From Gammaproteobacteria bacterium (GTDB taxonomy: Bacteria; Pseudomonadota; Gammaproteobacteria; Eutrophobiales; Eutrophobiaceae): 64,000 nt of DNA. Where the stretch lies: the NCBI GenBank assembly GCA_041984885.1, contig JBHIXH010000003.1:30823-94822 (forward strand), given 5' to 3'. A program made the translations under genes and the position numbers. The notes beneath the pieces are model-generated. The model was not told the origin of the DNA, did no database searches, and was given only the letters and a program-made list of their open reading frames with translations. Of this stretch, positions 1 to 41,088 are shown piece after piece; the first letter of the stretch is position 1, and each line of letters begins with the position of its first letter.

Positions 1-1
1 C

Positions 2-4234: not shown

Positions 4235-4237
4235 GTT

Positions 4238-13783: not shown

Positions 13784-13788
13784 CCGAA

Positions 13789-14565
13789 TTAGTCCACGCT
13801 GTGATCGTAGTCAATGATCAGCGGTGCGTGATCCGAAAACCGCTCTTTTTTATAGATGGAAACCTCTCTGACGCTGTCGCGCAAAGACGGCGAAACCACC
13901 TGGTAGTCGATACGCCAACCCACGTTTTTTGCCCAGGCCTGTCCGCGGTTTGACCACCAGGTGTATTGATCGGCTTCCTCGTTGACAACACGAAACGCAT
14001 CAACAAATCCAACCTCGTAGAATAACGTGTCCAGCCAGGCGCGTTCTTCCGGCAAAAAGCCGGAGTTCTTCTGATTACCACGCCAGTTTTTAATATCTAT
14101 TTTTTTATGGGCAATATTCCAGTCGCCACAAATAATATACTTGCGTCGTTGTCGTCGCATTTTTTTCAGCAGTGGCATGAAACGATCCATAAAGTCTATC
14201 TTGATTGCCTGGCGCTCGTCTCCGGAGGTGCCGGAGGGCAGGTATAACGAGATGACACTTAACTTGCCAAAATCGGTCTGAATATAGCGACCTTCGGTAT
14301 CCGCCGAGTCCCAGCCAAGCCGGGTATGTACCTTGTCCGGCTTTATTCGCGTATAGATAGCAACGCCACTGTAACCTTTTTTCTCCGCATCATGAAAAAA
14401 TGCCTGGTAACCTTTTGGTGCCAACAATTCTTCATCGAGCTGATGTGTTTGTGCCTTGGTTTCCTGCAGGCAGATCACATCGGCCTTTTGTTTATACAGC
14501 CACGGCAAAAAACCCTTGCGCTGAGCGGCACGTATCCCGTTCAGATTTAAAGAGATGACTCTCAT
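13789..14565 (-). CDS. xthA: exodeoxyribonuclease III
   Basis: Start chosen at MRVISLNLNGIRAA (the ATG at 14565). EEP-family motifs QETK and SDHAP are present. The ORF track extends to 14586. Confidence 0.88.
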   Translation of the reverse strand: MRVISLNLNGIRAAQRKGFLPWLYKQKADVICLQETKAQTHQLDEELLAPKGYQAFFHDAEKKGYSGVAIYTRIKPDKVHTRLGWDSADTEGRYIQTDFGKLSVISLYLPSGTSGDERQAIKIDFMDRFMPLLKKMRRQRRKYIICGDWNIAHKKIDIKNWRGNQKNSGFLPEERAWLDTLFYEVGFVDAFRVVNEEADQYTWWSNRGQAWAKNVGWRIDYQVVSPSLRDSVREVSIYKKERFSDHAPLIIDYDHSVD

Positions 14566-22474: not shown

Positions 22475-23188
22475 TTATTTAAACACGCCCGCGATCGTTT
22501 GCTGGATGGATTCCGCCGCCGCACGCGGATCGGCCGCGTCACGGATCGGACGACCGACGACGATGTGGTCGGCACCGTTGCTGAACGCCTGCTCCACATT
22601 AACGGTGCGTTTTTGATCGTCTTTATTATCGACCGGCCGAATGCCGGGCGTGATGACAAGTAACTTGTGATCGATATGTTCCCGTAACGCCGGTGCCTCC
22701 AGGCCGGACGAGATGACGCCGTCGCAACCGGATTCGAGCGCCCGTTTGGCGCGCGATAACACCAGCGCCTCAACATCGCAGTCAAAACCGAGATCATCGA
22801 GATCGCCGCGGTCGAGACTGGTCAGCGCGGTGACCGCGAGGATCTTCACCTCGCCTTTCGCCTCGGCGGCCGCCTGCATGATCGCGTCGTTACCGTGCAC
22901 GGTCGCGAATGTCGCGCCATGCCGGCTGAGTGCGCGCACGGCCGATTGCACCGTCTGCGGCACGTCGAAAAACTTCAAATCGACGAACACCTTCTTGTCC
23001 CGCTGGATCAGCCATTCGAGCAGATTGAAATAATCGCCGGCCATGAACAGCTCCAGGCCAATCTTGTAAAACGTCACCGCGTCGCCGAGTTGCTCGACCA
23101 GTTCCCGCCCCTGCTGCGGCGACGGTACATCGAGGGCAAAGATGAGGCGATCCCGATTGTCTATCGGTTTTGGCTTGAATTCAGACAT
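22475..23188 (-). CDS. pyrF: orotidine 5'-phosphate decarboxylase
   Basis: 237 aa. LIFALDV...FYKIGLELF and DLKFFDVP motifs. Confidence 0.92.
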   Translation of the reverse strand: MSEFKPKPIDNRDRLIFALDVPSPQQGRELVEQLGDAVTFYKIGLELFMAGDYFNLLEWLIQRDKKVFVDLKFFDVPQTVQSAVRALSRHGATFATVHGNDAIMQAAAEAKGEVKILAVTALTSLDRGDLDDLGFDCDVEALVLSRAKRALESGCDGVISSGLEAPALREHIDHKLLVITPGIRPVDNKDDQKRTVNVEQAFSNGADHIVVGRPIRDAADPRAAAESIQQTIAGVFK

Positions 23189-23306
23189 GGCAATTGTATC
23201 TCATTGAAATATAATAAATTATTGTTCTGTGACGGCGTATTCAGGCGGCAAATTGCAGCATAGACCGAAACCGGACGCAAGCCGCTGGCGAAACCCGGCT
23301 GAAAGC

Positions 23307-23335
23307 TTGGCAGTACCGCATGATCCATGTAAAAT
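23307..23335 (+). promoter_or_regulatory. putative sigma-70 promoter of rpmB-rpmG
   Basis: TTGGCA, a 17-nt spacer, then TAAAAT. It lies 45 nt upstream of the rpmB ATG. Confidence 0.5.
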
Positions 23336-23379
23336 CCGCGCTCTTTTTCACAAGTAGAACAACATTTACGGAAGCCATC

Positions 23380-23616
23380 ATGTCTCGCGTTTGCCAAGTA
23401 ACCGGAAAAAAACCGATGGCGGGAAACAACGTATCGCACGCGCATAACAAGACGCGTCGCCGTTTTCTGCCAAACCTGCACTATCGACGCTTCTGGGTCG
23501 AGAGTGAAAAGCGCTGGGTGCGCCTGCGTGTCAGCCGACATGGCATTCGCGTCATCGATAAAAAAGGCATCGATAACGTGCTGTCCGACATCCGCGCCCG
23601 CGGTGAAAAAGTCTAG
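23380..23616 (+). CDS. rpmB: 50S ribosomal protein L28
   Basis: [33 protein letters not shown], canonical L28. The ORF track starts upstream at 23320. Confidence 0.95.
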
Positions 23617-23626
23617 GAGCTAACAG

Positions 23627-23782
23627 ATGCGCGATAAAATCAAACTCGTTTCCAGTGCCGGCACCGGTCACTATTACACAACGACGAAGAACAAACGTAA
23701 CATGCCGGACAAAATGGAAATCAAGAAATTCGATCCGGTCGTACGCAAACACGTGATCTACAAGGAAGGCAAGATTAAATAA
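23627..23782 (+). CDS. rpmG: 50S ribosomal protein L33 (51 aa; below the ORF-track cutoff)
   Basis: My translation is [59 protein letters not shown] lies at 23616. Confidence 0.93.
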
Positions 23783-23802
23783 TCCCTCTTATCAGGGGAT
23801 AG

Positions 23803-23831
23803 AAAAAACCCGCTGTGACAGCGGGTTTTTT
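23803..23831. terminator. rho-independent terminator between rpmG (+) and desA (-)
   Basis: AAAAAACCCGCTG-tga-CAGCGGGTTTTTT: an A-run and a T-run flank a GC stem. Confidence 0.85.
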
Positions 23832-23850
23832 ATTGTCTTCGTTTTGATGC

Positions 23851-25035
23851 TTACGGTGCAGGCAAGGCCGGCTGCAAACTGTAACCCCGTAACAACGCTA
23901 CAAAGTCTTCCAGCGCAGCAATGCCGGACTGCTCGGCATGTCGGCACCACTGTTGCAGGTCTTTCAGGATCATTTCTTCCGTCAGTGCCGTGTCCTGCCA
24001 GAGTTGTTGCAACTTCTGCCTGAACTCATACACCGCCTTCATCGCCTCGTTTTCATTTAACAACTTTTCCAGTTGTTCTATTGTGTGCGTGTCGAGTTGC
24101 CATTGCGGTTTGTTTAACAACCGCCGCATCTTGCGCAGGGCAATACGACCGGAACGTTTTGTGCGCGAGTATTCATCACGATAGACCTGGCGAATGACGT
24201 TACGCGTGTAATCCGACATCACATGCATGCGCGATGTCACCACGGCAGTCGCCGTATCGGCATCAATGCGATCCTTTGTCGGATCAAACAATAACCGCGG
24301 TGCCAGTTTTTTCACCCTGGCCATTCCCAGCGCTTGCAAACAGCAGATGTAAAACCAGCCTATATCAAACTCCCACCATTTACTGGAGAACCGGGCCGAA
24401 CTGGCAAACGCATGGTGATTGTTATGCATTTCCTCGCCACCGATCAAAATACCGATCGGTGTAATATTCGTTGCGGCATCCGGCGAATCATAATTGCGGT
24501 AACCCCACCAGTGACCGAGACCATTGATCACACCCGCGGCAAAAAACGGGATCCACGCCATTTGTATTGCCCAGATCGAAACACCGATAACACCAAACAA
24601 CAACACGTTGATTGCCAGCATGGCAACGATGCCACAATTCGTAAATGGCAGGTAAAAGTGTTTCTCCATCCAGTCATCCGGGGTTGCATGACCATAGTCG
24701 ACAATCGTCGCGTCGTTTTCACATTCTTCACGATATAACTCCACGCCTTCCCACAGGACCTTGTTGATGCCGTGCGTTTGCGGACTGTGCGGGTCGTCGG
24801 CGGACTCCACCTGCGCATGGTGTTTGCGATGCACGGCGACCCATTCCTGTGTGCGCATGCCGGTCGTTAACCACAACCAGAAACGGAAAAAATGACTGAC
24901 GACGGGGTGCAGATTGACAGCGCGATGTGCCTGACAACGGTGCAGGTAAAGCGTGACCGCAGCGATCGTGATGTGCGTGAGTGCCAGCGTAACAATAATG
25001 TAGCCCCACCAGGGCAAGACGATCAGACCGGTCAT
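23851..25035 (-). CDS. desA: membrane acyl-lipid/acyl-CoA delta-9 fatty acid desaturase (DesA-like)
   Basis: 394 aa. His boxes HRCQAH, HRKHH and HNNHH. N-terminus and length resemble Pseudomonas DesA. Confidence 0.8.
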   Translation of the reverse strand: MTGLIVLPWWGYIIVTLALTHITIAAVTLYLHRCQAHRAVNLHPVVSHFFRFWLWLTTGMRTQEWVAVHRKHHAQVESADDPHSPQTHGINKVLWEGVELYREECENDATIVDYGHATPDDWMEKHFYLPFTNCGIVAMLAINVLLFGVIGVSIWAIQMAWIPFFAAGVINGLGHWWGYRNYDSPDAATNITPIGILIGGEEMHNNHHAFASSARFSSKWWEFDIGWFYICCLQALGMARVKKLAPRLLFDPTKDRIDADTATAVVTSRMHVMSDYTRNVIRQVYRDEYSRTKRSGRIALRKMRRLLNKPQWQLDTHTIEQLEKLLNENEAMKAVYEFRQKLQQLWQDTALTEEMILKDLQQWCRHAEQSGIAALEDFVALLRGYSLQPALPAP

Positions 25036-25083
25036 ATTTTATCTCCTGCGAATGGTTATTTTCATTGGTTTTGAATGCAACGA

Positions 25084-25971
25084 CTATGCCGCCGCCGTCA
25101 AGACATAATACAACGCCAGCGGTAACGTAATGACGCTGAACGCATTGCCAAACAACACCATTGCTGCAACGCGAGACGGTTGTTGCCGGTAATGCTCGGC
25201 AAACATGTAGTTTAATACCGCTGGCGGCAAGGCGCCGAAAAGCAATAATGTGCCCTGCTCGACCGGCGTCAATTGTAACCACGGCGTGACGGACAATGCC
25301 AGTGCCACCCCGATAACCGGCGATAACACGGCGACCAACAAGCCAATCCGCCACTCGGACAAGTCGGTTTCAGCCAGCCGTACACCGAGCGCAAACAACA
25401 TCAACGGCACACAGATATTTCCCAGCAACCGGATAGGCTGCAGGATGACATCCGGCACAGCCACCCCGCCAAACCCCAGGCCCAGCGCCAGCATGGTCGC
25501 AATCATCATCGGGTTCGTTGCCACGCTGGCCAGGTTGAAATCACGATGCATGATCGCCGGTGCGATCGTGATGTGAAAAAAATTGCACACAATAAATACT
25601 ATGACCGCCTGCGGCATCGCCTGCTGACCAAACGTTAACACGACCAGCGGCAAACCCAGGTTGCCGGCGTTACTGAACATTAACGGCGGACACAACACGG
25701 GCACAGGAATATTCAAATAGCGGGACAGCTGCCAGCCGATCAGGCCGGAAATGAGAATAATAAAGGCTATGCCGAAAGCAAGAGAACTGAACACGTTTTC
25801 ATAACCGGATTGATCGGTCAGCACGCTGAACAACAACGCCGGCACGAACACATCCATGTTTAACCGGTTCGGTAATGTCATGTCCGGTGTGAATCGTTTG
25901 GCGTACGCCAGGCCGACCAGCACAACGGTAAAGATCGGAAAGGTAATTTCAAAAATGCGGGCGGCAATCAT
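25084..25971 (-). CDS. AEC (auxin efflux carrier) family transporter
   Basis: 295 aa, about 10 TM segments, typical AEC family composition. 4-nt ATGA overlap with the upstream hydantoinase-like gene. Confidence 0.7.
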   Translation of the reverse strand: MIAARIFEITFPIFTVVLVGLAYAKRFTPDMTLPNRLNMDVFVPALLFSVLTDQSGYENVFSSLAFGIAFIILISGLIGWQLSRYLNIPVPVLCPPLMFSNAGNLGLPLVVLTFGQQAMPQAVIVFIVCNFFHITIAPAIMHRDFNLASVATNPMMIATMLALGLGFGGVAVPDVILQPIRLLGNICVPLMLFALGVRLAETDLSEWRIGLLVAVLSPVIGVALALSVTPWLQLTPVEQGTLLLFGALPPAVLNYMFAEHYRQQPSRVAAMVLFGNAFSVITLPLALYYVLTAAA

Positions 25972-27965
25972 GGCGTCGCATCGCTCAATGTCAGGATCAG
26001 GTTCGCGTATTCATCCAGGCTGGCGTACCAGTTTTTGGCGACGAACGTGGTGGCGACCGGGTCAGTCACAATCAACGGCCCTGGTTGTGGCGGCTCGCCC
26101 GCAAGGCTGTACCGGGGTCGCACTGGTATCGCCTGATCGAATCCATACGCAGTTACATGTTCTGTCTCCGAACCGGTTTCAGGTTTACCCATCTTCGGCA
26201 AGTTGAGCGAAGTTGGCGCGGCATTCAGACTGACACACAGGTTCACCAGTTCGATCGGGCTTTGCAGGCGATGACCGAAACGTTGCTGGTGCAGTTCGTG
26301 AAATTGTTGTTGCATCGTCTCCGTGTCAGTCAATGGCAGGTTCAACGTTGAGCTTTGGCCGTGATAGCACAGATCGACGCTCGTGGTGATGTCAATGCTG
26401 TCGATATTCACGTCTTCCTGTTGCAACCGTTCGATCCCGGTATCGATCAATGCCTGTCGCTGCTGCTGTAACTCCTGCCCGGTGATTCCGGCAAGCATGA
26501 CAGCCAGCGTTTGTTTCAGGTAACGACCCGGACTGGTGACGATCATACCGAGCGCCGATAACACGCCGGCGCGATCCGGCACAACGGCCTGGTGCATATT
26601 CAATGCCTCTGCCAATGCACAAATATGCAGACCACCGGCGCCACCAAAGGCGAACAGGCTGAAGTCTTTCGGGTCGATACCACGTTGCACCGAGATCATC
26701 CGTAACGCCTGCACCATGTTTTCATTGACTACTCTTATGACCCCTTCGGCCGCGGCTGCAGCCGAATCGACACCGATATCGGCGGCCAAGCTGTCCAAAG
26801 CGGTGTCGGCCGCCGCGACATCCAGTTGCAAACTGCCGCCGAGCCTGGCCTGAGGCGGAATCCGCCCGAGCACCAGGTTGGCATCGGTAACCGTCGCCGC
26901 TTGACCACACTGACCATAGCATGCCGGTCCCGGTACCGAGGCGGCCGATTCCGGTCCGACGTGGAGTTTACCGCCGGCATCGACATGGGCGATGGAACCG
27001 CCGCCGGCCCCGATCGTTTCCATTTCGACCATCGGTACGCCAACCGGATAGCGGCCGATACGACCGCGACCCATGATGTTAATGCCACCGTTGATCATGG
27101 CGACATCGGTCGAGGTCCCGCCCATGTCAAACGTCAGTAATTGTCTCCGCCCGATGGTTTCGCCAATGAACTTCGCTGCGGCCAGTCCACCGGCCGGGCC
27201 GGACAACAACAGGTGCACCGCCTCGGTGCCGGCTTGCCCGGTATCGCAGGTCTGGCCGGAACTGCGCATCACACTGACGCGTGCCGGTTTAACGGCCGCG
27301 CTCAGGCGCTGCAGATAACCTTGCACCAGTGGACCGACGGACGCATTCAACCAGGTGGCAATGCCACGTTCGTATTCGCGGTATTCCGGCAAGACACGAT
27401 GGGAACAGGAAACAAAAAAATCGTTTTCCAGTGCCGCGGCAATCTGTTGCTCGTCGTCGCTGCTGACAAACGAAAATAATAAATTGATTGCGACCGCTTC
27501 CACCTGTCGTTGTAACAGGGTTTCACGCAGCCGGGAGATGTCTGCCGATTTTAACGGCTGAATGATGACGCCTTGCTGATCGCGACGTACATCGATCTCG
27601 AGACACAGTTCGGCCGGCACTGGCGGTGGCAATGGCTGCGGTTGCAGGTTGTACAGTTCCGCCCGCGCCTGGCGCCCGATCGTCAATACGTCCTTGAGAC
27701 CTTTATTCGTGACATAGGCGGTTCTAACGCCACGGTTCTGTAACACCGCGTTCGTTGCCACGGTCGAACCATGAATAATACGTAATTGCTGCAGGTCCAG
27801 TTGCATCTCGGCAATGCCCTGCAGGATCGCGCGTTCCGGTGCAGCCGGGGTTGATAGCACTTTATGTAAACGAATGTCGTCGCCATCGACATAAACAAAA
27901 TCGGTGAACGTTCCGCCGGTATCGACGCCCAATAAACAAAGTTTTTGCCCGGACTTGCAACTCAC
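25968..27965 (-). CDS. hydantoinase/oxoprolinase A-type (HyuA) family protein
   Basis: 665 aa. N-terminal LLGVDTGGTFTDF and an internal second ASKHA-fold segment, FDMGGTSTDV. The start codon (GTG at 27965) is uncertain. Confidence 0.8.
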   Translation of the reverse strand: MSCKSGQKLCLLGVDTGGTFTDFVYVDGDDIRLHKVLSTPAAPERAILQGIAEMQLDLQQLRIIHGSTVATNAVLQNRGVRTAYVTNKGLKDVLTIGRQARAELYNLQPQPLPPPVPAELCLEIDVRRDQQGVIIQPLKSADISRLRETLLQRQVEAVAINLLFSFVSSDDEQQIAAALENDFFVSCSHRVLPEYREYERGIATWLNASVGPLVQGYLQRLSAAVKPARVSVMRSSGQTCDTGQAGTEAVHLLLSGPAGGLAAAKFIGETIGRRQLLTFDMGGTSTDVAMINGGINIMGRGRIGRYPVGVPMVEMETIGAGGGSIAHVDAGGKLHVGPESAASVPGPACYGQCGQAATVTDANLVLGRIPPQARLGGSLQLDVAAADTALDSLAADIGVDSAAAAAEGVIRVVNENMVQALRMISVQRGIDPKDFSLFAFGGAGGLHICALAEALNMHQAVVPDRAGVLSALGMIVTSPGRYLKQTLAVMLAGITGQELQQQRQALIDTGIERLQQEDVNIDSIDITTSVDLCYHGQSSTLNLPLTDTETMQQQFHELHQQRFGHRLQSPIELVNLCVSLNAAPTSLNLPKMGKPETGSETEHVTAYGFDQAIPVRPRYSLAGEPPQPGPLIVTDPVATTFVAKNWYASLDEYANLILTLSDATP

Positions 27966-31061: not shown

Positions 31062-31916
31062 ATGCGACAACGATTCCTGGTCAGCCTTGCACTGTTTGTC
31101 CTGGTCGCTGCGGCGATCGCGTTCCTGTTACTGACCGAAGCAGAAACGGAGACCGAAACCGAGACGCTGATCAGTGATCTGGATAAAGACACGATCAGCA
31201 CAATAACCATTCAGCATAAAGATAACGAATCCATCGTTTTTCAACGTGATGATTCGCACTGGTTGATGCAGTCACCGTTTACGGTCGCCGCCAAAACAGA
31301 ACGCATTGACGCCTTGCTGAACCTGTTGTCTTCCGGCAGTGCGGCGCAACTGGATGTGAACACGACTGACCTGCAGCGACTGTTGCTGGCGGAACCGGAA
31401 GTAAGTGTGCAGTTCGACGAACACCTTTTCCAGTTTGGTGATATTAACCCGCTGGATAAAAAACGTTATGTCCTGTTCAACGACACCGTGCACCTCGTTC
31501 ATGACAACCTGTATCCTCAGCTCACGGTCGGGCCCACATTCTTTATCGATCACAACCTGTTTCGCCCCGATGAAAAAATTATCAGCGTGCAATATCCGCA
31601 ATTTCGGTTATTAAATGAACAGGATCAATGGCGTCTTGAATCGGAGCTGAATGTCGATGATGAACAGGTGCAGTTGCTTGGCCGTACCTGGGCCACGTTA
31701 AATGCGAACACGGTACAGCAATACGAACCGCTGGAGCCGCTGTACGAATTACACGTCACGCTGACAGACGGCAGGGCGATCACGTTTGCCGTGATCTCCG
31801 ATCTGCCGGAGCTCGTACTGGCACGGGCGGATCTTGGTCTGCAATATCACATACCGGCCTACCTGTCGGAAAAACTGTTCCCGCGCGAGTCGGCCGAGGA
31901 AAGCGTCAGCGAATAA
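31062..31916 (+). CDS. DUF4340-like protein
   Basis: 284 aa with an N-terminal TM anchor. Usual fourth gene of GldA/F/G-like operons. Contains a short (ET)x4 run. Confidence 0.55.
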   Translation: MRQRFLVSLALFVLVAAAIAFLLLTEAETETETETLISDLDKDTISTITIQHKDNESIVFQRDDSHWLMQSPFTVAAKTERIDALLNLLSSGSAAQLDVNTTDLQRLLLAEPEVSVQFDEHLFQFGDINPLDKKRYVLFNDTVHLVHDNLYPQLTVGPTFFIDHNLFRPDEKIISVQYPQFRLLNEQDQWRLESELNVDDEQVQLLGRTWATLNANTVQQYEPLEPLYELHVTLTDGRAITFAVISDLPELVLARADLGLQYHIPAYLSEKLFPRESAEESVSE

Positions 31917-32731
31917 TGCCGGAGCTGCCGGAAGTCGAAACAACGCGCCGTGGCATCGCACCGTACATAAAAGGGCAAACCGTCTCTGAACTCCTCGTTC
32001 GCAACCGGCAACTACGCTGGCCGATTCCGCGACAATTAAACAAAACGTTAACCGGACGAACCATCCATGCCATCGAGCGGCGCGGAAAATATATCCTGTT
32101 TTATACCAGCCAGGGTTGCCTGCTGTTGCATCTCGGCATGTCCGGCAGTCTGCGCATATTAAAAGAGCCGCAAGCGCCGAACAAACACGACCACGTGGAT
32201 ATCCGGTTCAACAGCGGGGTTTGCTTGCGGTTTACCGATCCTCGACGCTTCGGCTCAATACACTGGACTTCGCACGATCCATTGCAACATGCCCTGTTAA
32301 AAGACCTGGGACCGGAACCGCTCGGCAAGGACTTCAATGCCGACTACCTGTTCATCGTGTCACGCAAACGCATACAATCGATCAAGACGTTCATCATGAA
32401 CAGTCATATCGTTGTCGGTGTCGGTAACATCTATGCCAACGAGGCGCTGTTTGCCGCGCGCATCCATCCCCTGCGCAGGGCCGGCAAGTTGAGCAAACGT
32501 GAATGCAACGAACTATGCAAAGAAATTAAAACCGTACTGACATTGGCCATTGAAAAGGGCGGCACGACATTACGCGACTTTGTTGATGGCGACGGCAAGC
32601 CCGGATACTTTCGTCATGAGTTACAGGTTTATGACAAGGCCGGCGATCCGTGCCCGGTTTGCAACAAACCGATCACGCTTAAACGGATTGGTCAACGCTC
32701 AAGTTTTTATTGCACTCGCTGCCAATCCTGA
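31916..32731 (+). CDS. mutM: formamidopyrimidine-DNA glycosylase
   Basis: N-terminus MPELPEVETTRRGI and C-terminal zinc finger CPVC...CTRCQ. The start overlaps the preceding stop (TAATG). Confidence 0.95.
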   Translation: MPELPEVETTRRGIAPYIKGQTVSELLVRNRQLRWPIPRQLNKTLTGRTIHAIERRGKYILFYTSQGCLLLHLGMSGSLRILKEPQAPNKHDHVDIRFNSGVCLRFTDPRRFGSIHWTSHDPLQHALLKDLGPEPLGKDFNADYLFIVSRKRIQSIKTFIMNSHIVVGVGNIYANEALFAARIHPLRRAGKLSKRECNELCKEIKTVLTLAIEKGGTTLRDFVDGDGKPGYFRHELQVYDKAGDPCPVCNKPITLKRIGQRSSFYCTRCQS

Positions 32732-32732
32732 A

Positions 32733-32957
32733 TTAAAGATTGTCGAGCGGACTTTTCACACCATTGCCACCCTTGTTTAGCACATGGGTATACACCATTT
32801 CTTCACCTGCTATATCTTTCGGGTGACGTTTGTTATGAAAAATAATATAGCGGCGTATCCACTGAGTATAAGATTGCTCTGTTTTTCTTGAGTAATGCAA
32901 AAACCGGATCTTGTTCCAGATTTGATCGAGTAATTTAGGCATGGAATCCTGACTCAT
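32733..32957 (-). pseudogene. intI: integron integrase (IntI) remnant with a large internal deletion
   Basis: The 74-aa ORF joins an IntI-like N-terminus (KLLDQIWNKIRFLHYSRKTEQSYTQWIRRYIIFHNKRHPKDIAGEE) directly to the extreme IntI C-terminus (MVYTHVLNKGGNGVKSPLDNL, including the catalytic-Tyr box). About 250 aa of catalytic core are missing. Confidence 0.8.
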
Positions 32958-33219
32958 TTTGCCCCTCCCTGGAAATACCCTCCTAAAATGTCCGCTAAAA
33001 GTATTTTAACGATCTCTCTAAGCTATTGAATATAAATTAATAAAGCAAGCCTTATAGATCGCTAAAATATAGGGGAATATTGAAACCATGGATATAAAAT
33101 AAGCAAAGTGGACACCGCCGCTATAGACGGTCTAGAATAAAATCACTGCATATCTAATTGAAACAGGGAGGTTTTTCACAATGTCCACTCTCTACTCTCT
33201 ATAATGCCTTAGCGGACTA

Positions 33220-33244
33220 ACTGTCCCTTAAAATATAGTTAGGT
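33220..33244 (+). other. attI-like recombination site (core GTTAGGT at 33238..33244)
   Basis: ACTGTCCCTTAAAATATAGTTAGGT. It is about 280 bp from the intI start, divergent orientation. From memory it resembles class 1 attI1, ...GCCCTAAAACAAAGTT.... Confidence 0.55.
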
Positions 33245-33269
33245 TACCAAGTCCCCAAGGATTCTAGAT

Positions 33270-33965
33270 ATGCATCAAGATGAAATAAAGTCTCTTTTTG
33301 ATAAACAAGCAGCAAACTACGACGCGCAGTGGGCTAAAACAGCGTCGATACGAAACTGCCTACATTTGCTCCTCGGGTCGATGTTCGCTGAGCTACCTCA
33401 AGATGCAAATATACTTTGAGTCGGGGTGGGTACAGGCGACGAACTAATCTATCTTGCGTCTCGCAATCCTGAGTGGAGATTTACTGCAGTAGAGCCATCT
33501 GGACAAATGCTTGATATCTGTCGCAGGCGGACGCAAGAAGAAGGTATTGAATCTCGTTGCTTTTTTCACGAAGGTTATTTGGATTCACTTCCAGAAATCG
33601 AAGATTATGATGCTGCTACTTGCTTCTTGGTATCACAGTTTATCCTAGAATTTGATGATCGTTCTAAGTTCTTCAGGGAAATTGCGAAAAGACTCAAAGC
33701 GAATGGCGTTCTTGCAAGCTCAGATCTTGCATCAGATATTGAATCACTGGAGTATGAGGTAGTGCTACGTGGCTGGATGAATATGATGAGTGCGGCGGAT
33801 ATTACATCGGAGACGTTAGAACGTATGAGAAAAACTTATGCTACCGATGTTGGAGTTTTACCTTCAACCAGTATTGAATCAATTATTAAATCTGGAGGTT
33901 TTGATTTACCTGTCCAGTTCTTTCAGGCAGGGCTAATTCATGCTTGGCTGTCAAAGCGAGCGTGA
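33270..33965 (+). pseudogene. cassette 1: class I SAM-dependent methyltransferase interrupted by an in-frame TGA at 33417..33419
   Basis: The ATG at 33270 is in frame with ORF 33426..33965. The translation reads MHQDEIKSLFDKQAANYDAQW...PQDANIL*VGVGTGDE. The stop therefore sits inside SAM-binding motif I (ILxVGxGTG). Confidence 0.75.
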
Positions 33966-33972
33966 AATTACC

Positions 33973-34020
33973 ACCTAACTAGGCAATGCACGCGACAAGC
34001 GCGTGATTGCAGCGTTAGGT
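33973..34020 (+). repeat. attC site 1
   Basis: ACCTAAC...GTTAGGT are perfectly complementary RYYYAAC/GTTRRRY boxes. Internal dyad GCAATGCACGCG/CGCGTGATTGC. Starts 8 nt after the cassette 1 stop. Confidence 0.85.
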
Positions 34021-34035
34021 ATCGTTAATGAAAAA

Positions 34036-34575
34036 ATGAAGCATCTGACAAAACTAATTTTAACGTTATATTTGGCAATCCTCTACGGCTGCACTATCAG
34101 CATAGGCAATACAAGTTTAAAGGGTAAAATTTTTGATGAAGCTAATGTTCAAGTTTTATCTAAAAATATCAGCATAAACGGCGAAGACATCCTGGCAGGG
34201 AAAGAAATCTCATATAAAGCTGGAGAGATAGTAATTGATTATAAAGGCGAATTGCTTCGCAAAAAATTAATAGCAACGGACAATACAAAAACTAACAATA
34301 ATATTATGTCCGATCTAGGGTGCTTTTTATTACTACCTATATGTATGTTAACTGCTGCTGCATCCGGGGTTTCATCTGAACCAATATATGAATTCATCCC
34401 CTCTTATTGTGATGCTAGATTGACTGTGCAAATTGAGGCAGGTCATAAATATATTATAAAAACCAATGAAAAAACTACAGATTACCCAATTTTATCTATT
34501 GACCGTAAATCTTCGCCGTCTTTTACAATTTCAGAAGAAATTATGTCTTGCAAAGATTTAGATAATACAACATGA
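34036..34575 (+). CDS. cassette 2: hypothetical lipoprotein
   Basis: Start at MKHLTKLILTLYLAILYGC (lipobox LYGC). No recognisable domain. The ORF track starts at 34003, inside attC 1. Confidence 0.6.
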   Translation: MKHLTKLILTLYLAILYGCTISIGNTSLKGKIFDEANVQVLSKNISINGEDILAGKEISYKAGEIVIDYKGELLRKKLIATDNTKTNNNIMSDLGCFLLLPICMLTAAASGVSSEPIYEFIPSYCDARLTVQIEAGHKYIIKTNEKTTDYPILSIDRKSSPSFTISEEIMSCKDLDNTT

Positions 34576-34588
34576 CATCATTAATGAT

Positions 34589-34655
34589 ATCTAACCAATC
34601 ACTCCACACGGACTGCTCGCCTGCGGCTCGCCGCCCGTGAGTTCAGCCGTTAGAT
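34589..34655 (+). repeat. attC site 2
   Basis: ATCTAAC...GTTAGAT are perfectly complementary core boxes. 67 bp, GC-rich imperfect dyad interior. Confidence 0.85.
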
Positions 34656-34671
34656 GCCTAAAAGGATCAAT

Positions 34672-35103
34672 ATGAAATCTGTCAAAACATATCTATTTTC
34701 GTTATCAATACTAATACTGTCTGCTTGCACAACAGATAGATCACCCAGCCAGATCTATGAGGAATACAACTCAAAAGTAATACAGGGAATAGACTTTTAT
34801 GAGGAGAAGGCTTATTTCACGAAACGCAAGCAAGAGGAAGTGGAGTCAAAAATGCCTCAGTACATGGAGTCAATGAATAAAACTCGCGACGAGGTCATAT
34901 TATTTTACCTGGAATTCTCCAGGGAATTAGCCAAATGCAAAGAAATTGCACTTATAAAGGAAGAAATTACCGGAAATACAGCCAAGCTTGAATACTCGCA
35001 AAACGATATTTGCGGGAATGAATCATCATCACAGGAAAAGCAATCTATTCGAATGATTAATGAAAATGGCTGGAAGATTGATGATGTTGTGGTCAGCATC
35101 TAA
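34672..35103 (+). CDS. cassette 3: hypothetical lipoprotein
   Basis: Start at MKSVKTYLFSLSILILSAC (lipobox LSAC) with an AAAGGA RBS. No recognisable domain. Confidence 0.6.
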   Translation: MKSVKTYLFSLSILILSACTTDRSPSQIYEEYNSKVIQGIDFYEEKAYFTKRKQEEVESKMPQYMESMNKTRDEVILFYLEFSRELAKCKEIALIKEEITGNTAKLEYSQNDICGNESSSQEKQSIRMINENGWKIDDVVVSI

Positions 35104-35169
35104 CAAGGCGCTGAAGACTGACAACTCTAAGGCTACGCCTTAGAGATGCGGCTGAGCGCAGCGTTTGGC
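35098..35169 (+). repeat. attC site 3 (degenerate right core)
   Basis: ATCTAAC overlaps the stop codon. Central perfect hairpin CTCTAAGGC-tac-GCCTTAGAG. The right end is GTTTGGC: it keeps GTT but deviates from GTTRRRY. Confidence 0.55.
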
Positions 35170-35175
35170 ACCCGT

Positions 35176-35574
35176 ATGACATATCCAGGTTCTTGTCTTT
35201 GTGGTGATGTCACCTTTGAAGTCGAAGGTGAGTTTCAACACTTCTTTCTTTGCCACTGCAAGCACTGTCAGAAAGATACAGGTTCAGCTCATGCAGCAAA
35301 TCTTTTTTCTAGTGCTGCTGTAATACGCTGGGTATCTGGCGAAAACAATATATCAATATATAACCTTCCCTCAACCCGGCATCAAAAAAGTTTTTGTTCT
35401 AACTGTGGTTCGGCGCTTCCCTACATGCAGTCAAACAAAACATTAGTCGTGCCAGCTGGTAGCCTTGATTGCGACGTCCCGATATCACCCAAAGCTCATA
35501 TTTTTACAGACAGCAAAGCAAACTGGAGCCGAGATCTTGAGGAAGTGACCTCTTTTGCAAAACTTCCCGAGTAA
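35176..35574 (+). CDS. cassette 4: GFA (glutathione-dependent formaldehyde-activating / CENP-V) family protein
   Basis: Start at MTYPGSCLCGDVTFEV. Cys pattern CLCG...CHCKHCQK...CSNCG is typical of the GFA zinc fold. Confidence 0.75.
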   Translation: MTYPGSCLCGDVTFEVEGEFQHFFLCHCKHCQKDTGSAHAANLFSSAAVIRWVSGENNISIYNLPSTRHQKSFCSNCGSALPYMQSNKTLVVPAGSLDCDVPISPKAHIFTDSKANWSRDLEEVTSFAKLPE

Positions 35575-35597
35575 GTTATGAACCACCTCACACAGAC

Positions 35598-35672
35598 ACC
35601 TAACAATTCGTTCAAGTTCGCCTTCGGCAGGATGGTCGCTTATGCGCCCGCCCCTTAGCTCAGGCGTTATGT
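35598..35672 (+). repeat. attC site 4
   Basis: ACCTAACAATTCGTTCAAG...CTTAGCTCAGGCGTTATGT, a VCR-like layout. The right core GTTATGT has one mismatch to GTTRRRY. Confidence 0.7.
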
Positions 35673-35712
35673 GGCAATAACTCATAGGGCACTACGCTTA
35701 CAGGATATTTTG

Positions 35713-36000
35713 ATGGCTGACACAGAAGTTAATATTGCAAAATGCATGTGTGAGAATTGCGGATGTGAATTTGAATTTACCAGAGAAAACGCCGAGAAAT
35801 TGGATGGATCTACAATTACATGTCATTGCGGTTATTCTTTTCAGCCATTTTTTGTACGAGAACTTTATCAGTTTGATGACATCAATTTTCCCGATCAATG
35901 TTATGAAGGAGACGAGCGTAAAAACAAGGCAATAAAAGTTCAATTGGCAGACGGAAGCATAATCACTGTAGGGCTTAGGCCATGGTGGAAGTTTTGGTAA
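35713..36000 (+). CDS. cassette 5: hypothetical Cys-rich small protein (95 aa)
   Basis: Start at MADTEVNIAKCMCENCGCEFEF...ITCHCGY (zinc-ribbon-like Cys/His pattern). No attC is recognisable downstream. Confidence 0.5.
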   Translation: MADTEVNIAKCMCENCGCEFEFTRENAEKLDGSTITCHCGYSFQPFFVRELYQFDDINFPDQCYEGDERKNKAIKVQLADGSIITVGLRPWWKFW

Positions 36001-36094
36001 ATTATTTTTTTAATTTATAGCTAGTAATAGAGAATCAAGGGTATCAAACTTATTACTTCCGCTATTAAAAGCAGGCATTTCGTGAATTATCAAA

Positions 36095-36123
36095 TTGACA
36101 CAATAAAACACATTACTGGTAAT
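36095..36123 (+). promoter_or_regulatory. possible sigma-70 promoter for the GNAT gene
   Basis: TTGACA, a 17-nt spacer, then GGTAAT, in an AT-rich 158-bp spacer. Confidence 0.3.
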
Positions 36124-36158
36124 TCGTATGGGATCGCTGATGTAACCCCACCTTTCTA

Positions 36159-36611
36159 TTGTCAGGTTTTATCCGGCGTATTAGCTTGATCATTCGCGAA
36201 ATGGCGCCGTCAGATGTAAACCAGCTTCAGGAGGTTTACTATCAAACCCGATCGAAAGAATTTCATTGGTTGCGTGAAAATGCAATCAGTCGAGATGACT
36301 TTGAACAAGACACGGAAGGCGAAAGGATCTGGGTTGCCGAACGCAACAGGAAAGTGCTTGGTTTTATCTCTGCCTGGCAACAAGAGAATTTCATCCACCA
36401 TTTATTTGTTCTGCCTGAACATTTCAATCAAGGCATCGGGTCACGGTTACTCTCGGTTTGCTTGCAGAACATCGGGCGCCCTGCCACACTCAAATGCGTT
36501 TCTGAAAATACCCGGGCGTTACAGTTTTATAAGAGTAAAGGCTGGCAAACGGTATCCGTTGCATCAGGCGCCGAGGGTGAATATCAACTTATGCAAGTGA
36601 ATGAAACGTAA
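36159..36611 (+). CDS. GNAT family N-acetyltransferase
   Basis: 150 aa. Motif A HHLFVLPEHFNQGIGSRLL and C-terminal NTRALQFYKSKGW. The TTG start is uncertain. Confidence 0.8.
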   Translation: MSGFIRRISLIIREMAPSDVNQLQEVYYQTRSKEFHWLRENAISRDDFEQDTEGERIWVAERNRKVLGFISAWQQENFIHHLFVLPEHFNQGIGSRLLSVCLQNIGRPATLKCVSENTRALQFYKSKGWQTVSVASGAEGEYQLMQVNET

Positions 36612-36620
36612 TCAATTCCT

Positions 36621-36983
36621 GTGAACTCCCGCGTGCTAGGCATGCACGAGTTAGCCGATTTCTCAAAAGCCTATCTTTCTGCCATGACCAGATTATGTAT
36701 TTCAAGCATGGCAAGCTGGACAGAAGACTTCTACAAAAAGCACGGTCTGCAAATTGTGAAACTGGTCAGCTACTTTCCCCGGGGTATGTCATTTCATACG
36801 ATAATCTACGACGTCTGTTCGGCCAATTCCTTGGAGCACTTGAGGCTGTTTAATAACAGGGGTGAAGCCGTTCGTTGGCTTAATGAGGAGGACGAAGCCC
36901 GGTTCGCGCTCGAGACATTTAATGGAAACCGGGAACGCAGCGCCTGCCGAAGGCATCCAATGTCACAGTATCCGCAGAGATGA
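36621..36983 (+). CDS. hypothetical protein (120 aa); its C-terminus carries the ALETFNGNR repeat copy 1
   Basis: GTG-start ORF 9 nt after the GNAT stop and 11 nt before the ECF sigma start. No confident domain assignment. Confidence 0.45.
   Translation: MNSRVLGMHELADFSKAYLSAMTRLCISSMASWTEDFYKKHGLQIVKLVSYFPRGMSFHTIIYDVCSANSLEHLRLFNNRGEAVRWLNEEDEARFALETFNGNRERSACRRHPMSQYPQR
36906..36932 (+). repeat. 27-nt direct repeat, copy 1 (encodes ALETFNGNR)
   Basis: GCGCTCGAGACATTTAATGGAAACCGG versus copy 2 GCACTCGAGACATTTAATGGCAATCGA. 23 of 27 positions are identical, with a 17-nt perfect core. Confidence 0.8.
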
Positions 36984-36994
36984 GTGCATAACCG

Positions 36995-37711
36995 ATGTTG
37001 AACCCAGACGAATTGACCATTGACGCAACCAGCGATGCCGAGTTGGCCCAACGAATGGCTGCTGGTGACACCGTCACCCTGGAACGGGTTATGCGCTGCT
37101 ACAATCAATTACTGTATCGCGCCGCACGCAGCATCCTAAAGAACGAACAGGAGGCGGAAGAGGCGGTGCAAGACGCCTATCTGAAAGGCTATCGCAACAT
37201 CGGTCAGTTTCAGGGCTACGCCAAACTGTCCACCTGGCTGACCCGGATCGTCATCAATGAAGCGCTGGTACGCCAGCGCAAACATCAACGCCGAGCAGCG
37301 ATCATCCCCATCGACGCAGATGCCGCTGTGGATTCACCCACTGCCGAGGATGCCCCTATGCCAAACGCGACCTCAGCCAGCCCGGAACAGGACGCCCAGC
37401 GCGCTGAAGTCCGTCGTCTGATAGAACGAAATATCGACAAATTACCCGATGCGTTTCGTTGCGTATTTGTCCTGCGGGCGCTCGAAGAAATGACCGTTGA
37501 AGAAACTGCAAACTGCCTGGACATAGCGGAAGCCACTGTGCGATCCCGTTATTTCCGTGCCCGGGGCCTGCTACGCGAAGCCATTGCGCGTGAAATTGAC
37601 CTGAAGCAGGAAGATGCCTTCAGTTTTGCCGGCACGCGCTGCGATCGCATAGTCGCCGGCGTACTGGCGCGACTGGCGGGCGAGGACAACGACGCCCCGG
37701 CCGGGCCATGA
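36995..37711 (+). CDS. ECF-type RNA polymerase sigma-70 family factor with C-terminal extension
   Basis: 238 aa. Region 2 (AVQDAYLKGYRNIGQF...STWLTRIVINEAL) and region 4 (FVLRALEEMTVEETANCLDIAEATVRSRYFRARGLL), followed by about 50 extra residues including FSFAGTRCDRIVAGVLARL. Confidence 0.85.
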   Translation: MLNPDELTIDATSDAELAQRMAAGDTVTLERVMRCYNQLLYRAARSILKNEQEAEEAVQDAYLKGYRNIGQFQGYAKLSTWLTRIVINEALVRQRKHQRRAAIIPIDADAAVDSPTAEDAPMPNATSASPEQDAQRAEVRRLIERNIDKLPDAFRCVFVLRALEEMTVEETANCLDIAEATVRSRYFRARGLLREAIAREIDLKQEDAFSFAGTRCDRIVAGVLARLAGEDNDAPAGP

Positions 37712-37802
37712 ATCCGGAAACGCAGGGACGGCTGCGGTATCCGATCAGATAGAGCCCAAGCCAAGGCGACTGACGCAAGATCAATCACAAGTGGTATCAC
37801 CC

Positions 37803-38105
37803 ATGCACAAATTCATAGCCTTTGCCGGATTATTGACCCTGGCATTCACCGCTCAAGCGGCCGACCTGAATGCGGGCAGGCAGAAAGCGGCCCGCTGCGC
37901 CGGTTGCCATGGTAGCGCAGGCATCAGCAATAACCCGGCTTTGCCCAACCTGGCAGGACAAAAAGAACAGTACCTGCAAATACAGCTACGCGCATTTCGG
38001 GACGGCTCACGCAGTAACCCGATGATGAATGGCATGGCCCAATCCTTGACCGATGCGGACATTGAAAATCTCGCTGCGCACTTTGCCCGTCTAAAGCACG
38101 AATAG
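37803..38105 (+). CDS. class I c-type cytochrome (monoheme, periplasmic)
   Basis: Signal peptide FAGLLTLAFTAQA, heme motif CAGCHG, distal Met region NPMMNGMA. An alternative GTG start lies at 37791. Confidence 0.85.
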   Translation: MHKFIAFAGLLTLAFTAQAADLNAGRQKAARCAGCHGSAGISNNPALPNLAGQKEQYLQIQLRAFRDGSRSNPMMNGMAQSLTDADIENLAAHFARLKHE

Positions 38106-38110
38106 TGTCC

Positions 38111-38420
38111 ATGCCCGGGGTTGCAGGCCCGGCGATCACCACCACACCCTATGACCAAGGCGGGGCGACCTTATACGCCTCGGGTGGAGTGATCGGCATC
38201 CGTCAACTTGTCGATCACTATTACGACATCATGGCATCCGCACCGGCCTAAAGACGCAGGTACCGCTAGCACTCTCCCGGCGGCGATGCGGCGCGCGACG
38301 AACTGGCGCGCTTTCTCTTCAGCTGAACCCTTGCGGGAACGTGACTGGCGCTCGTGTCATCTCATTGTCAGAGCGTTGCTCTGCATTGAGATACCACCGT
38401 TTATTCAACCCCTCAGGAGG
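38111..38420 (+). pseudogene. group 2 truncated hemoglobin remnant
   Basis: The frame from ATG 38111 reads MPGVAGPAITTTPYDQGGATLYASGGVIGIRQLVDHYYDIMASAPA*. The same frame continues RRRYR*HSPGGDAARDELARFLFS*. These resemble the trHb N-terminus (LYxxLGGxxxIxxLVDxFYxxM) and the MHPxDL...R-x-K/E-L-x-x-FL segment. There are at least 3 in-frame stops and too little room for a full globin. Confidence 0.45.
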
Positions 38421-39941: not shown

Positions 39942-40079
39942 AAGACCGTACTTATTACCGTAATAACACCCCAAACAACACAGCATCAGGATTCGACCTG
40001 AACAATTATGGGTTTCTAGCAGTCACTAGAGATGACGCGTGATACTGTGCTCGCATTTCGGTACAGCTTGCAAGAAGCA

Positions 40080-40229
40080 ATGAAACAACCTATTACACTG
40101 TCACTTTTGGCTTTGTCATTTTCCGTATCTACTGAACAGGCAGGTTGCATCGGCAAGCGTGATCTGGATAACGACGGCGTTATTCATACGATACAATCAG
40201 GTCCAATCGAAATGTTAGGCAACGCATGA
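40080..40229 (+). CDS. hypothetical small secreted/lipoprotein-like peptide (49 aa)
   Basis: The internal ATG gives MKQPITLSLLALSFSVSTEQAGC.... Weak call; the ORF track has 40032..40229. Confidence 0.25.
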   Translation: MKQPITLSLLALSFSVSTEQAGCIGKRDLDNDGVIHTIQSGPIEMLGNA

Positions 40230-40247
40230 GACCTGCTGATTGTTACG

Positions 40248-40532
40248 TTGAGTGCAAACGGCAATGCACTCGAGACATTTAATGGCAATCGACCTGCAAG
40301 ATTATGGTTCTACTGGCGACTGGTAAATAGCGAAGGCGTTGTCACTGCGTTTACCTTCATGAAACAAGAGTTAAAGCAGCAGAGCATCACTGTTTATGTC
40401 GGTACCGCCGGGTCCGGGCTTGGGGAATCGTTGCTGGCGACAATGTTCGAAAAGACTCGCGTCCATATTCTCGACCGGGTCAGTCCTTATACGGTTCCGG
40501 ATCATCCGGACGGAAACGAGTGGGGCAAGTGA
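40248..40532 (+). CDS. hypothetical protein (94 aa), possibly a GNAT-like fragment; its N-terminus carries the ALETFNGNR repeat copy 2
   Basis: TTG-start ORF. ITVYVGTAGSGLGESLLATMFEK is reminiscent of GNAT motif A. Too short for a full domain. Confidence 0.35.
   Translation: MSANGNALETFNGNRPARLWFYWRLVNSEGVVTAFTFMKQELKQQSITVYVGTAGSGLGESLLATMFEKTRVHILDRVSPYTVPDHPDGNEWGK
40266..40292 (+). repeat. 27-nt direct repeat, copy 2 (encodes ALETFNGNR)
   Basis: See copy 1. All four mismatches fall on third codon positions and are synonymous. Confidence 0.8.
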
Positions 40533-40605
40533 TGCCCTAACCTGACCAGGTGCGGGCTGGTGCAACTTAACCAGAGATATCAACCATACAATTGGAGAGA
40601 GATAT

Positions 40606-41019
40606 ATGAACGTGAATACTCAATGCCTGTGCGGTTCAGTGGCAATAGAAGCAGAGCTATCGAGCACGGAAGTGGCGGCGTGCCACTGCAGCATGTGCAG
40701 AAAGTGGGCCGGCGGGCCGATGCTGGCGATTGACTGCGGTGGTTCAGTGAAATTCAAAAATGAATCTCTGGTGACCCGTTATCCCTCTTCCGACTGGGCC
40801 GACAGGGGATTTTGCTCAAAATGCGGCACGCATTTATTCTATTATTTAAAGTCGGCCAATCAGTATCATTTGCCAGCCGGTTTAATGGAAACCGACGCTG
40901 ATTACGCGTTAACACATCAGATCTTCATCGACGAAAAACCGGCTTATTACAGCTTCTCCAACGAGACGAAAAATATGACCGGCGCTGAAGTGTTTGCCGA
41001 ATTTGAAAATAATCAATAA
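40606..41019 (+). CDS. GFA (CENP-V/glutathione-dependent formaldehyde-activating) family protein
   Basis: 137 aa. CLCGSVAIEA...CHCSMCRKWAGGP...CSKCGTHLFY. GGAGAG RBS. Confidence 0.8.
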   Translation: MNVNTQCLCGSVAIEAELSSTEVAACHCSMCRKWAGGPMLAIDCGGSVKFKNESLVTRYPSSDWADRGFCSKCGTHLFYYLKSANQYHLPAGLMETDADYALTHQIFIDEKPAYYSFSNETKNMTGAEVFAEFENNQ

Positions 41020-41088
41020 GTGCGCGTCGAGTAAATTAACCGCAAACGCCAGCACCACTGCCATAACGAACAACGCTATTTATACATT

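Follow-up and report, generated by a model that had tools for sequence, protein, structure and literature searches.

The stretch of DNA analysed here, referred to below as the window, comprises 64,000 nucleotides of contig JBHIXH010000003.1 from a gammaproteobacterium (assembly GCA_041984885.1), and all coordinates given for it are counted from its first letter. Immediately downstream of mutM (fpg; 31916-32731, plus strand; NF002211, E 5e-106; Pfam Fapy_DNA_glyco, H2TH and zf-FPG), which forms the left chromosomal flank, the window carries the remnant of an integron integrase gene (intI), an attI-like region, four gene cassettes each ending in an attC site and a fifth open reading frame (ORF) without such a site. 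We regard this region as very probably a small chromosomal integron whose intI has been destroyed and whose cassette array is now frozen. In functional integrons the tyrosine recombinase IntI recombines the folded bottom strand of attC sites with attI, thereby inserting promoterless cassettes downstream of the cassette promoter (Pc), and recombination between two attC sites excises them. A first-pass annotation made from the letters alone had proposed a decayed integron at this place, an interpretation that our analysis supports, the intI remnant, attI, attC sites and cassette mobility having each been found.

The intI pseudogene lies at 32733-32957 on the minus strand, convergent with mutM and with 1 nt between the two stop codons, which bears out the position directly downstream of mutM that had been assigned to the element. 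It encodes 74 amino acids (aa), corresponding to the N-terminus of IntI (approximately residues 1-53) fused in frame to its last 20 or so residues (MVYTHVLNKGGNGVKSPLDNL), and a Shine-Dalgarno-like sequence (GGGAGGGG) is found upstream of its ATG. Two stretches of this ORF fit TIGR02249, the integron-integrase model (E 6e-17), and Pfam PF13495, the N-terminal SAM-like domain, is matched at positions 1-45 of 85 only; the Pfam scan returned no match to PF00589, the tyrosine-recombinase catalytic domain. Aligned with VchIntIA (PDB 2A3V), its residues 18-54 correspond to 14-50 and residues 54-73 (MVYTHVLNKGGNGVKSPLDN) to 300-319 of that protein, and a tblastn comparison with IntI1 found amino acids 15-61 and 310-330 represented in the remnant and 62-309 missing. 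As judged from these alignments, which confirm the minus-strand IntI-like remnant of the first-pass annotation, the 74-aa ORF is what is left of an integron integrase that has lost a single large internal segment in frame; the central loss amounts to about 250 residues, the first 50 and the last 20 or so being kept, and its junction falls near 32796-32798. The lost segment presumably took with it one half of the N-terminal domain, the insertion specific to IntI and the Arg-Lys-His-Arg-His catalytic residues, the tyrosine motif being the part that stays. Because the catalytic residues except the tyrosine are deleted, the 74-aa product would be unable to recombine DNA. The retained N-terminus is 49% identical to that of IntI1; the tblastn search with IntI1 revealed no second IntI-like sequence in the 64-kb window, and no LexA box was found upstream of intI at one mismatch or fewer.

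Deletions of this kind are not peculiar to the window. Short ORFs of 77-130 aa that fuse the N- to the C-terminus of IntI in frame recur in metagenomes (P0002-P0007, P0013, P0014 and P0017), with junctions that differ among them, several lying just before (A/V)SCHT(L/F)RHSFAT, and one of these ORFs (P0004; contig L103, 8001-8354) adjoins a glyoxalase cassette and an attC site scoring 34.5 bits with the covariance model described below. From these sequences, deep internal deletions of intI are recurrent events; protein databases show only the in-frame ones and their recurrence therefore says nothing about selection.

At 281 bp from the intI start codon, on the plus strand, the sequence CCCTTAAAATATAGTTAGGT (33225-33244) ends in GTTAGGT (33238-33244). 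It represents the predicted attI simple site, CCCTTAAAATATA-GTTAGGT, with the crossover placed between G33238 and T33239; it lies beside the divergent 5' end of intI, ends in a GTTRRRY motif and marks the point where cassette DNA starts. The closest integron platform found, in a protein search with the remnant, is the Logan metagenome contig L084 (SRR3501078), the IntI N-terminus of which is 74% identical to that of the window. The entire intI-attI spacer of L084 aligns with the window, the blocks in common including ATAAAATAAGCAAAGTGGACACC, ATTGAAACARGGAGGTTTTT, CTATAATRCCTTA and CGGACnAAnTGTCC, and the two platforms further share TGGACA...TA-A-T, GGAGGTTTTT, TATAAT and a GGAC...GTCC dyad. 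The alignment stops right after TAGTTA, a pattern that would follow from a crossover at G|TT (33238|33239) with different cassettes beyond it; past this point L084 does carry different cassettes, with a 31.8-bit attC after the first of them. This homology confirms the attI-like sequence that had been placed about 280 bp from the integrase remnant. The simple site also resembles that of attI1 (GCCCTAAAACAAAGTTA; GTCGCCCTAAAACAAAGTTA), which was read from the class 1 plasmid locus L100. The intI gene of L084 (1208-1770) is itself cut, in a different manner, its frame ending about 75 residues into the homologous region and unrelated sequence following, and an intact member of the intI lineage common to L084 and the window was not among the sequences recovered.

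Two candidate cassette promoters lie in the same region. A consensus scan identified TGGACA-18 nt-TAGAAT (33109-33138, plus strand; 10 of 12 matches) facing the cassettes, and at the same hexamer positions L084 carries TGGACA-18-TATACT. The other, TTCACA-19 nt-TATAAT (33175-33205, plus strand), was read from the sequence, its 19-nt spacer falling outside the 16-18 nt range of the scan, and its TATAAT is kept in L084. Both putative promoters face the cassettes and have hexamers conserved in the related platform. Also within the attI region and on the cassette strand, a strong Shine-Dalgarno-like GGGAGG is followed by a 7-codon ORF (33166-33204, ATG at 33181), and L084 (approximately 1030-960, reverse strand) has the same GGAGGTTTTT and then a 19-codon ORF. 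The attI1 site contains a short leader ORF that aids cassette translation, of which the 7-codon ORF is reminiscent.

To search for attC sites we used a covariance model (R1) as a surrogate for the approach of IntegronFinder. It was trained on 13 distinct attC sites from class 1 integrons, located on plasmids by means of IntI1 (twelve arrays taken), which lay 3' of annotated cassette genes such as aadA1, aadA2, aadA5, aadB, aac(6')-Ib, blaVIM-2, arr-3 and dfrA5/12/27; none of them came from the window. Canonical R-box and L-box pairs, together with the bulged L'' base, are built into the model, which was run over the whole 64 kb on both strands with filters off. Its four top matches are exactly the four attC-like sites of the first-pass annotation, recovered independently at the same coordinates or within 1 nt of them, all on the plus strand and within 1.7 kb: attC1 (33973-34020, 48 nt; 32.9 bits, E 6e-6; R'' ACCTAAC and R' GTTAGGT pairing 7/7), attC2 (34589-34655, 67 nt; 32.8 bits, E 6.6e-6; ATCTAAC and GTTAGAT, 7/7), attC3 (35098-35169, 72 nt; 13.8 bits, E 0.46; ATCTAAC and GTTTGGC, 4/7) and attC4 (35598-35672, 75 nt; 32.5 bits, E 7.5e-6; ACCTAAC and GTTATGT). 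The best match elsewhere in the window scored 13.1 bits (an attC-like sequence at 40166-40220 on the minus strand, treated as chance). R1 is strand-specific, giving 32.9 bits for attC1 as against 9.8 bits on the opposite strand; in the mutM loci of 80 other species (1.38 Mb) it produced a single hit at E of 1 or less, inside another integron remnant, and it recovered attC sites in three unrelated arrays (L084, L101 and L103). Rfam 15 holds no attC family, and a scan of the window against it gave noise only.

The sites found with this surrogate model combine R''/R' pairs, L boxes and an extrahelical base on a single strand, and they start 8 nt and 14 nt after the preceding ORF stop, overlapping it, and 24 nt after it, respectively, in agreement with the earlier remark that each begins within about 25 nt of the stop of a small ORF. 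The RYYYAAC...GTTRRRY boxes that had been attributed to all four sites hold for attC1 and attC2, the only ones retrieved by a strict regular expression, and the R' boxes of attC3 (GTTTGGC) and attC4 (GTTATGT) are off consensus. An expression of this kind asks too much, since the distal portion of R' is contributed by the cassette that follows. The same applies to attC3, whose R1 score is marginal: the 6 bases past the crossover belong to the following cassette, hence the mismatch within the array, and its R'' pairs 7/7 with the 5' end of its own cassette (GTTAGAT), so that the R box of the circularised cassette would be without mismatch. Hybrid R' boxes likewise occur in real class 1 arrays (e.g. 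GTTATGC after aac(6')-29a). In attC4 the R''-spacer-L'' segment, ACCTAAC-AATTC-GTTCAAG, equals the aadA/aadB attC consensus. Folding of the bottom strands, which the first-pass annotation had proposed as a check, set attC1 apart from shuffled sequences (-16.5 kcal/mol, z -5.3) and failed to do so for attC2 to attC4 (z -0.8 to -1.6), unconstrained single-strand folding being judged insensitive and not used alone. The bottom strand of attC1 forms an R box, spacers of 3 nt and an L stem of 11 bp, and a single base bulges out on the R''/L'' arm; that of attC2 shows a paired 7-bp R box, an L stem and unpaired spacers of 6 and 5 nt, with a bulged C at the canonical L'' position (top strand) corresponding to G on the bottom strand. 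The extrahelical bases anticipated for these sites were thus seen in both folds.

The first cassette (33239-34014, plus strand, ending in attC1) contains the coding sequence of a class I S-adenosylmethionine-dependent methyltransferase (33270-33965; Pfam Methyltransf_25/12/11) interrupted by an in-frame TGA at 33417-33419, within motif I, at the Asp of ILDLGAGTG. Its alignment to PDB 3DTN continues across the TGA, which is present also in the Logan contigs L081, L082 and L106; on this evidence the gene is a pseudogene. The loss of the equivalent of IntI1 62-309, together with this pseudogene, gives substance to the word decayed in the original description. Among the ORFs submitted to PADLOC only this one gave a hit (mad2 methyltransferase domain, E 1.7e-11), the other six giving none, and the emphasis placed earlier on new biology and defence functions finds no backing, no defence family having been matched beyond this generic domain hit on a pseudogene. 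Pfam and other profile scans detected no resistance genes among the cassettes.

Cassette 2 (34015-34649, plus strand, ending in attC2) provides the evidence for mobility. Its coding sequence (34036-34575) specifies lipoprotein 1, with a signal peptide ending in LYG|C, for which a single homolog was found in 5.8 billion proteins (P0019, 62% identity). P0019 sits in a metagenomic array (L101, 4.7 kb, 1-4666) that has four attC hits on the plus strand, a Zn-ribbon protein, and Fic/antitoxin and PIN/VapB cassettes on the opposite strand. The window and L101 are homologous at the DNA level from CGTTAG of the upstream R' to ...CAGCCGTT of the attC of cassette 2 itself, and the flanks are unrelated; being confined to the cassette boundaries, this homology is direct evidence of movement as a cassette. 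The lipoprotein 1 gene is under purifying selection, with a ratio of nonsynonymous to synonymous substitution rates of 0.14. Cassette 2 thus pairs an ORF with its own attC, is shared between arrays and has G|TT boundaries; second copies of cassettes 1, 3 and 4 were not found, and their layout is the same. Cassette 3 (34650-35163, plus strand, ending in attC3) encodes lipoprotein 2 (34672-35103; lipobox LSA|C), the TAA stop of which lies inside R''. In an exhaustive HMMER search lipoprotein 2 had, apart from its own cluster, 93 homologous representative clusters with proteins of about 140-150 aa, and neither it nor these homologs matched a family in Pfam. Its AlphaFold model (predicted local distance difference test, pLDDT, 93) gave only weak matches, to NTF2-like folds, and no attC was found beside the best homolog (contig L102). 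Cassette 4 (35164-35666, plus strand, ending in attC4) encodes a zinc protein of the GFA / CENP-V family (35176-35574; PF04828, E 1.7e-26).

A fifth unit (35667-36158, plus strand) starts at the attC4 crossover and consists of a Cys-rich ORF of 95 aa (35713-36000) and a 158-bp AT-rich tail. The cassette genes had been described as mostly orphans, namely the two lipoproteins and this Cys-rich peptide; the description fits the latter, for which the protein search found no homolog and whose structure model is unusable (pLDDT 43), and it does not fit lipoprotein 2 with its 93 clusters. No attC was found in 35680-37100, where the best R1 score was 5.2 bits. Beyond the fifth unit lie the gene of a GNAT acetyltransferase (start at 36159 or 36201, end at 36611, plus strand; Pfam Acetyltransf_1/7/10) and orf120, an ORF of 120 aa (36621-36983, plus strand) for which no relatives were found; both may be eroded cassettes or unrelated DNA. 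The G+C content of the integron features is 0.36-0.46 as against 0.53-0.54 in the flanks, so that the cassette DNA is indeed AT-rich as originally observed, and that of the GNAT gene and orf120 is 0.46-0.50 as against 0.58 in the next gene, which encodes an extracytoplasmic function (ECF) sigma factor. The low-G+C tract reaches about 36990, past the stretch covered by the first-pass annotation, and the element itself spans at least 32733 to approximately 36000.

The right-hand side of this tract has further features. A 26-nt direct repeat, GCRCTCGAGACATTTAATGGMAAYCG, occurs at 36906-36931 and 40266-40291 (23 of 26 positions identical; by our estimate the chance expectation for such pairs is about 7e-4), in the 3' part of orf120 and in the 5' part of an ORF at 40248-40532, both copies encoding ALETFNGNR. 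The repeats flank a 3.36-kb high-G+C block with the genes of the ECF sigma factor, a cytochrome c and a DUF2231 protein, and this arrangement could mean that a low-G+C tract, once continuous, was interrupted by inserted DNA or rearranged. A second patch of lower G+C content (39950-41050; 0.445-0.50) holds two small ORFs and a second GFA-family gene (40606-41019), the product of which is 27% identical to that of cassette 4.

The genes around the element are those of a chromosome. Upstream are an ABC transporter, its auxiliary protein, a DUF4340 protein and mutM, and downstream the three genes of the high-G+C block, and no transposase, tni, plasmid or insertion sequence (IS) genes touch the element at either edge; this gene content supports its residence in the chromosome. 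The nearest genome among the matches listed in a mutM scan of species-representative genomes is a metagenome-assembled genome (L001) whose MutM is 61% identical. Its gene order agrees with that of the window for about 15 kb, as far as mutM, and not beyond. At 10817-14424, right after mutM, L001 also carries a decayed integron, in the orientation opposite to that of the window: an N-terminal intI fragment (14263-14424, plus strand) with an in-frame TAG, an attI-like TAGTTATGT near 14020, and cassettes on the minus strand running back towards mutM, among whose products are a STAS-like protein, an amino-acid permease and a YoeB-like toxin fragment, with an attC of 22.6 bits at 11501-11598. In the comparison of this position among relatives, suggested by the first-pass annotation, L001 has an inverted integron remnant and the other 79 mutM loci are without an attC hit with R1. 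The IntI remnants of the window and L001 are 36% identical, below the identity of the former to IntI1, and the two attI regions gave no convincing alignment; from these sequences, either shared ancestry of the two mutM-linked integrons or independent capture is possible. Upstream of mutM, an ORF at 23851-25035 (minus strand) is chimeric, residues 8-212 corresponding to a fatty-acid desaturase and 264-383 to an ISL3-family DDE transposase, and the surrounding block (approximately 22475-27965, with pyrF, transporter and hydantoinase genes) is missing from the otherwise syntenic L001.

Elsewhere, the window sequence is represented by near-identical metagenome contigs only. Between them, six short Logan contigs, which come from three sequencing runs, cover 32196-38127 with 99.9-100% identity, and they agree with the window in the intI deletion, the TGA and the order of the cassettes; the intI remnant is identical in L081 and L082, and the gene order through the GNAT gene is the same in L104 and L105. 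The independent assemblies agree and the sequence is thus reproduced.

These features can be brought together as follows. The locus retains the layout of an integron, with the intI remnant on the minus strand, a putative Pc and attI directed towards the plus strand, four complete cassettes and a fifth ORF without attC. The in-frame deletion of the equivalent of IntI1 62-309 would have deprived it of a recombinase, and the array would be frozen because the 74-aa product cannot recombine DNA. Since then it would have been eroding, as suggested by the nonsense codon in cassette 1, the weak attC3 and the missing terminal attC, the remaining cassettes being probably read through from the conserved promoter-like sites of the attI region. 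The attC1, attC2 and attC4 sites, which fold and score like working sites, could still be mobilised by an integrase acting in trans. Several observations weigh against so settled a picture. The analysis covers 64 kb of the genome and a functional intI may reside elsewhere in it. The Logan contigs may stem from the same population as the window, so that little diversity was sampled and the frozen state is weakly tested by them, and neither the matches listed in the mutM scan nor an exact-protein look-up with MutM, which returned nothing, provided a near relative whose site is empty or whose intI is intact (a look-up with the ECF sigma factor retrieved one identical short contig only). The promoters are consensus matches only, attC3 taken alone fails a strict threshold at E 0.46, and the fifth ORF, the GNAT gene and orf120 have no attC, which leaves the right end of the element undefined.

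If an intact integrase encoded elsewhere in the genome or on a plasmid acted in trans on the attC sites, the array would still be dynamic. This is conceivable given that attC1, attC2 and attC4 score 32-33 bits, like functional class 1 sites, with R-box pairing and bulges kept, and that genomes with more than one intI, as well as attC site clusters without an integron-integrase (CALIN) co-occurring with IntI, are common (PMC4889954, PMC2426708). Nevertheless, we hold it to be unlikely, the window containing no second IntI, cassette order being the same in all recovered assemblies, and the nonsense mutation of cassette 1 and the missing terminal attC fitting neglect. A good deal less credible is the view that a mobile integron, whole or in part, recently landed beside mutM on a transposon, plasmid or island. 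The heterogeneity of the attC sites (48-75 nt, dissimilar), as in mobile integrons, the close likeness of attC4 to those of the aadA/aadB type and the AT-richness of the element relative to its host would suit such an origin, whereas neither edge has tni/Tn402, qacEdelta1/sul1, IS or plasmid genes, the intI stop lies 1 nt from that of mutM with no foreign DNA between them, the IntI N-terminus is just 49% identical to IntI1, the syntenic L001 also has an integron remnant after mutM, and no cassette carries a resistance gene. That the sites might be chance or generic palindromes (terminators or sequences like repetitive extragenic palindromes), and the 74-aa ORF a fragment of some unrelated recombinase, has a next to nil probability. 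The unconstrained folds of attC2 to attC4 and the noise-level score of attC3 would be in line with it, yet a model naive to the window returned three hits at E of about 7e-6 within 1.7 kb of one strand, R1 distinguishes the strands (32.9 versus 9.8 bits) and finds almost nothing in the 1.38 Mb of controls, the homology of cassette 2 ends exactly at the cassette boundaries and the ORF fits the integron-specific TIGR02249; we consider this explanation refuted by the E-values, the controls, the cassette 2 boundaries and the TIGR02249 match.

Complete integrons are defined by an IntI protein with both PF00589 and the IntI-specific domain, which this locus lacks in spite of its clear IntI homology. 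It has instead the attributes of a CALIN, namely two or more attC sites, with no nearby protein satisfying that IntI definition, and in operational terms, by the classes of IntegronFinder, it is a CALIN with an adjacent intI pseudogene. As in the CALIN of Cury et al. (2016), two or more attC sites share one strand within 4 kb, and the cassettes are mostly of unknown function and are not resistance genes. In the CALIN survey a recognisable intI pseudogene accompanied 15 of 279 clusters, the screen needing intI_Cterm coverage above 50% (PMC4889954). Compared with those clusters, the remnant described here is without the IntI-specific C-terminal region and its attI and promoter region are still intact; since that region is deleted, the screen would count this locus among the 95% of CALIN without a pseudogene. 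About one third of genomic intI genes are pseudogenes, for instance in Xanthomonas or the intI2 of class 2 integrons (Nemergut et al. 2008, PMC2426708), and dead integrases beside small arrays are a documented and common state (PMC2426708, PMC4889954). With chromosomal integrons of inactivated integrase our locus has in common a fixed position at a housekeeping gene, a dead intI and a short array of unknown function; it differs in that the survey stressed stop codons and frameshifts (PMC2426708), whereas here a single large in-frame deletion leaves a 74-aa ORF, and in that its host lineage has no close sequenced relative, the best MutM match among those listed being 61%.

The platform layout is also that of class 1 mobile integrons, to which the attI1-like simple site (CCCTAAAAC...GTTA), the R''-spacer-L'' of attC4, identical to that of aadA/aadB, and the recognition of the array by a model trained on class 1 attC sites add further likeness. 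Unlike these, the element has no Tn402 backbone, 3' conserved segment or resistance cassettes, is chromosomal and non-functional, and shares only 49% identity with IntI1 in the N-terminus of its integrase; the same IntI identity, and borders without transposition or plasmid genes, set it apart from mobile integrons of classes 1-5 in general. Sedentary chromosomal integrons have more than 19 attC sites or a species-wide presence, and homogeneous attC sites, as opposed to the four dissimilar sites of 48-75 nt found here. Overall, this is an ordinary, decaying chromosomal integron of a well-known kind, and nothing in it indicates a new mechanism or a defence system.

It is tempting to speculate that, in an undescribed lineage of gammaproteobacteria, the position following mutM may long have served as a docking site for integrons that is inherited vertically. 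If so, the window and L001 would document a natural inversion of a whole integron followed by integrase loss, an outcome to be anticipated were an active integrase to carry a cost that depends on which way the array faces relative to replication, and the integron inversion experiments in V. cholerae would offer a comparison for such an orientation cost (PMC13108822). As a second and weaker idea, given that fusions of the IntI N- and C-termini recur in metagenomes, the 74-aa ORF could have been retained as a small protein rather than as mere debris. Taken together, the docking-site and inversion proposal and its small-protein companion appear rather improbable to us.

The interest of the frozen array is modest and lies in a tidy 74-aa relic, in evidence for mobility at the resolution of cassette boundaries and in an oppositely oriented remnant in the nearest relative. 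It adds an example of a degenerate chromosomal integron from a poorly sampled lineage of gammaproteobacteria. Beyond this lineage, some of the attC clusters recorded as integrase-less may be integrons with deep internal intI deletions that are missed by screens relying on the C-terminal region. Finally, as three of the attC sites look competent, cassettes such as those of lipoprotein 1, the NTF2-like lipoprotein family and the GFA-family protein could recirculate if an integrase arrives.

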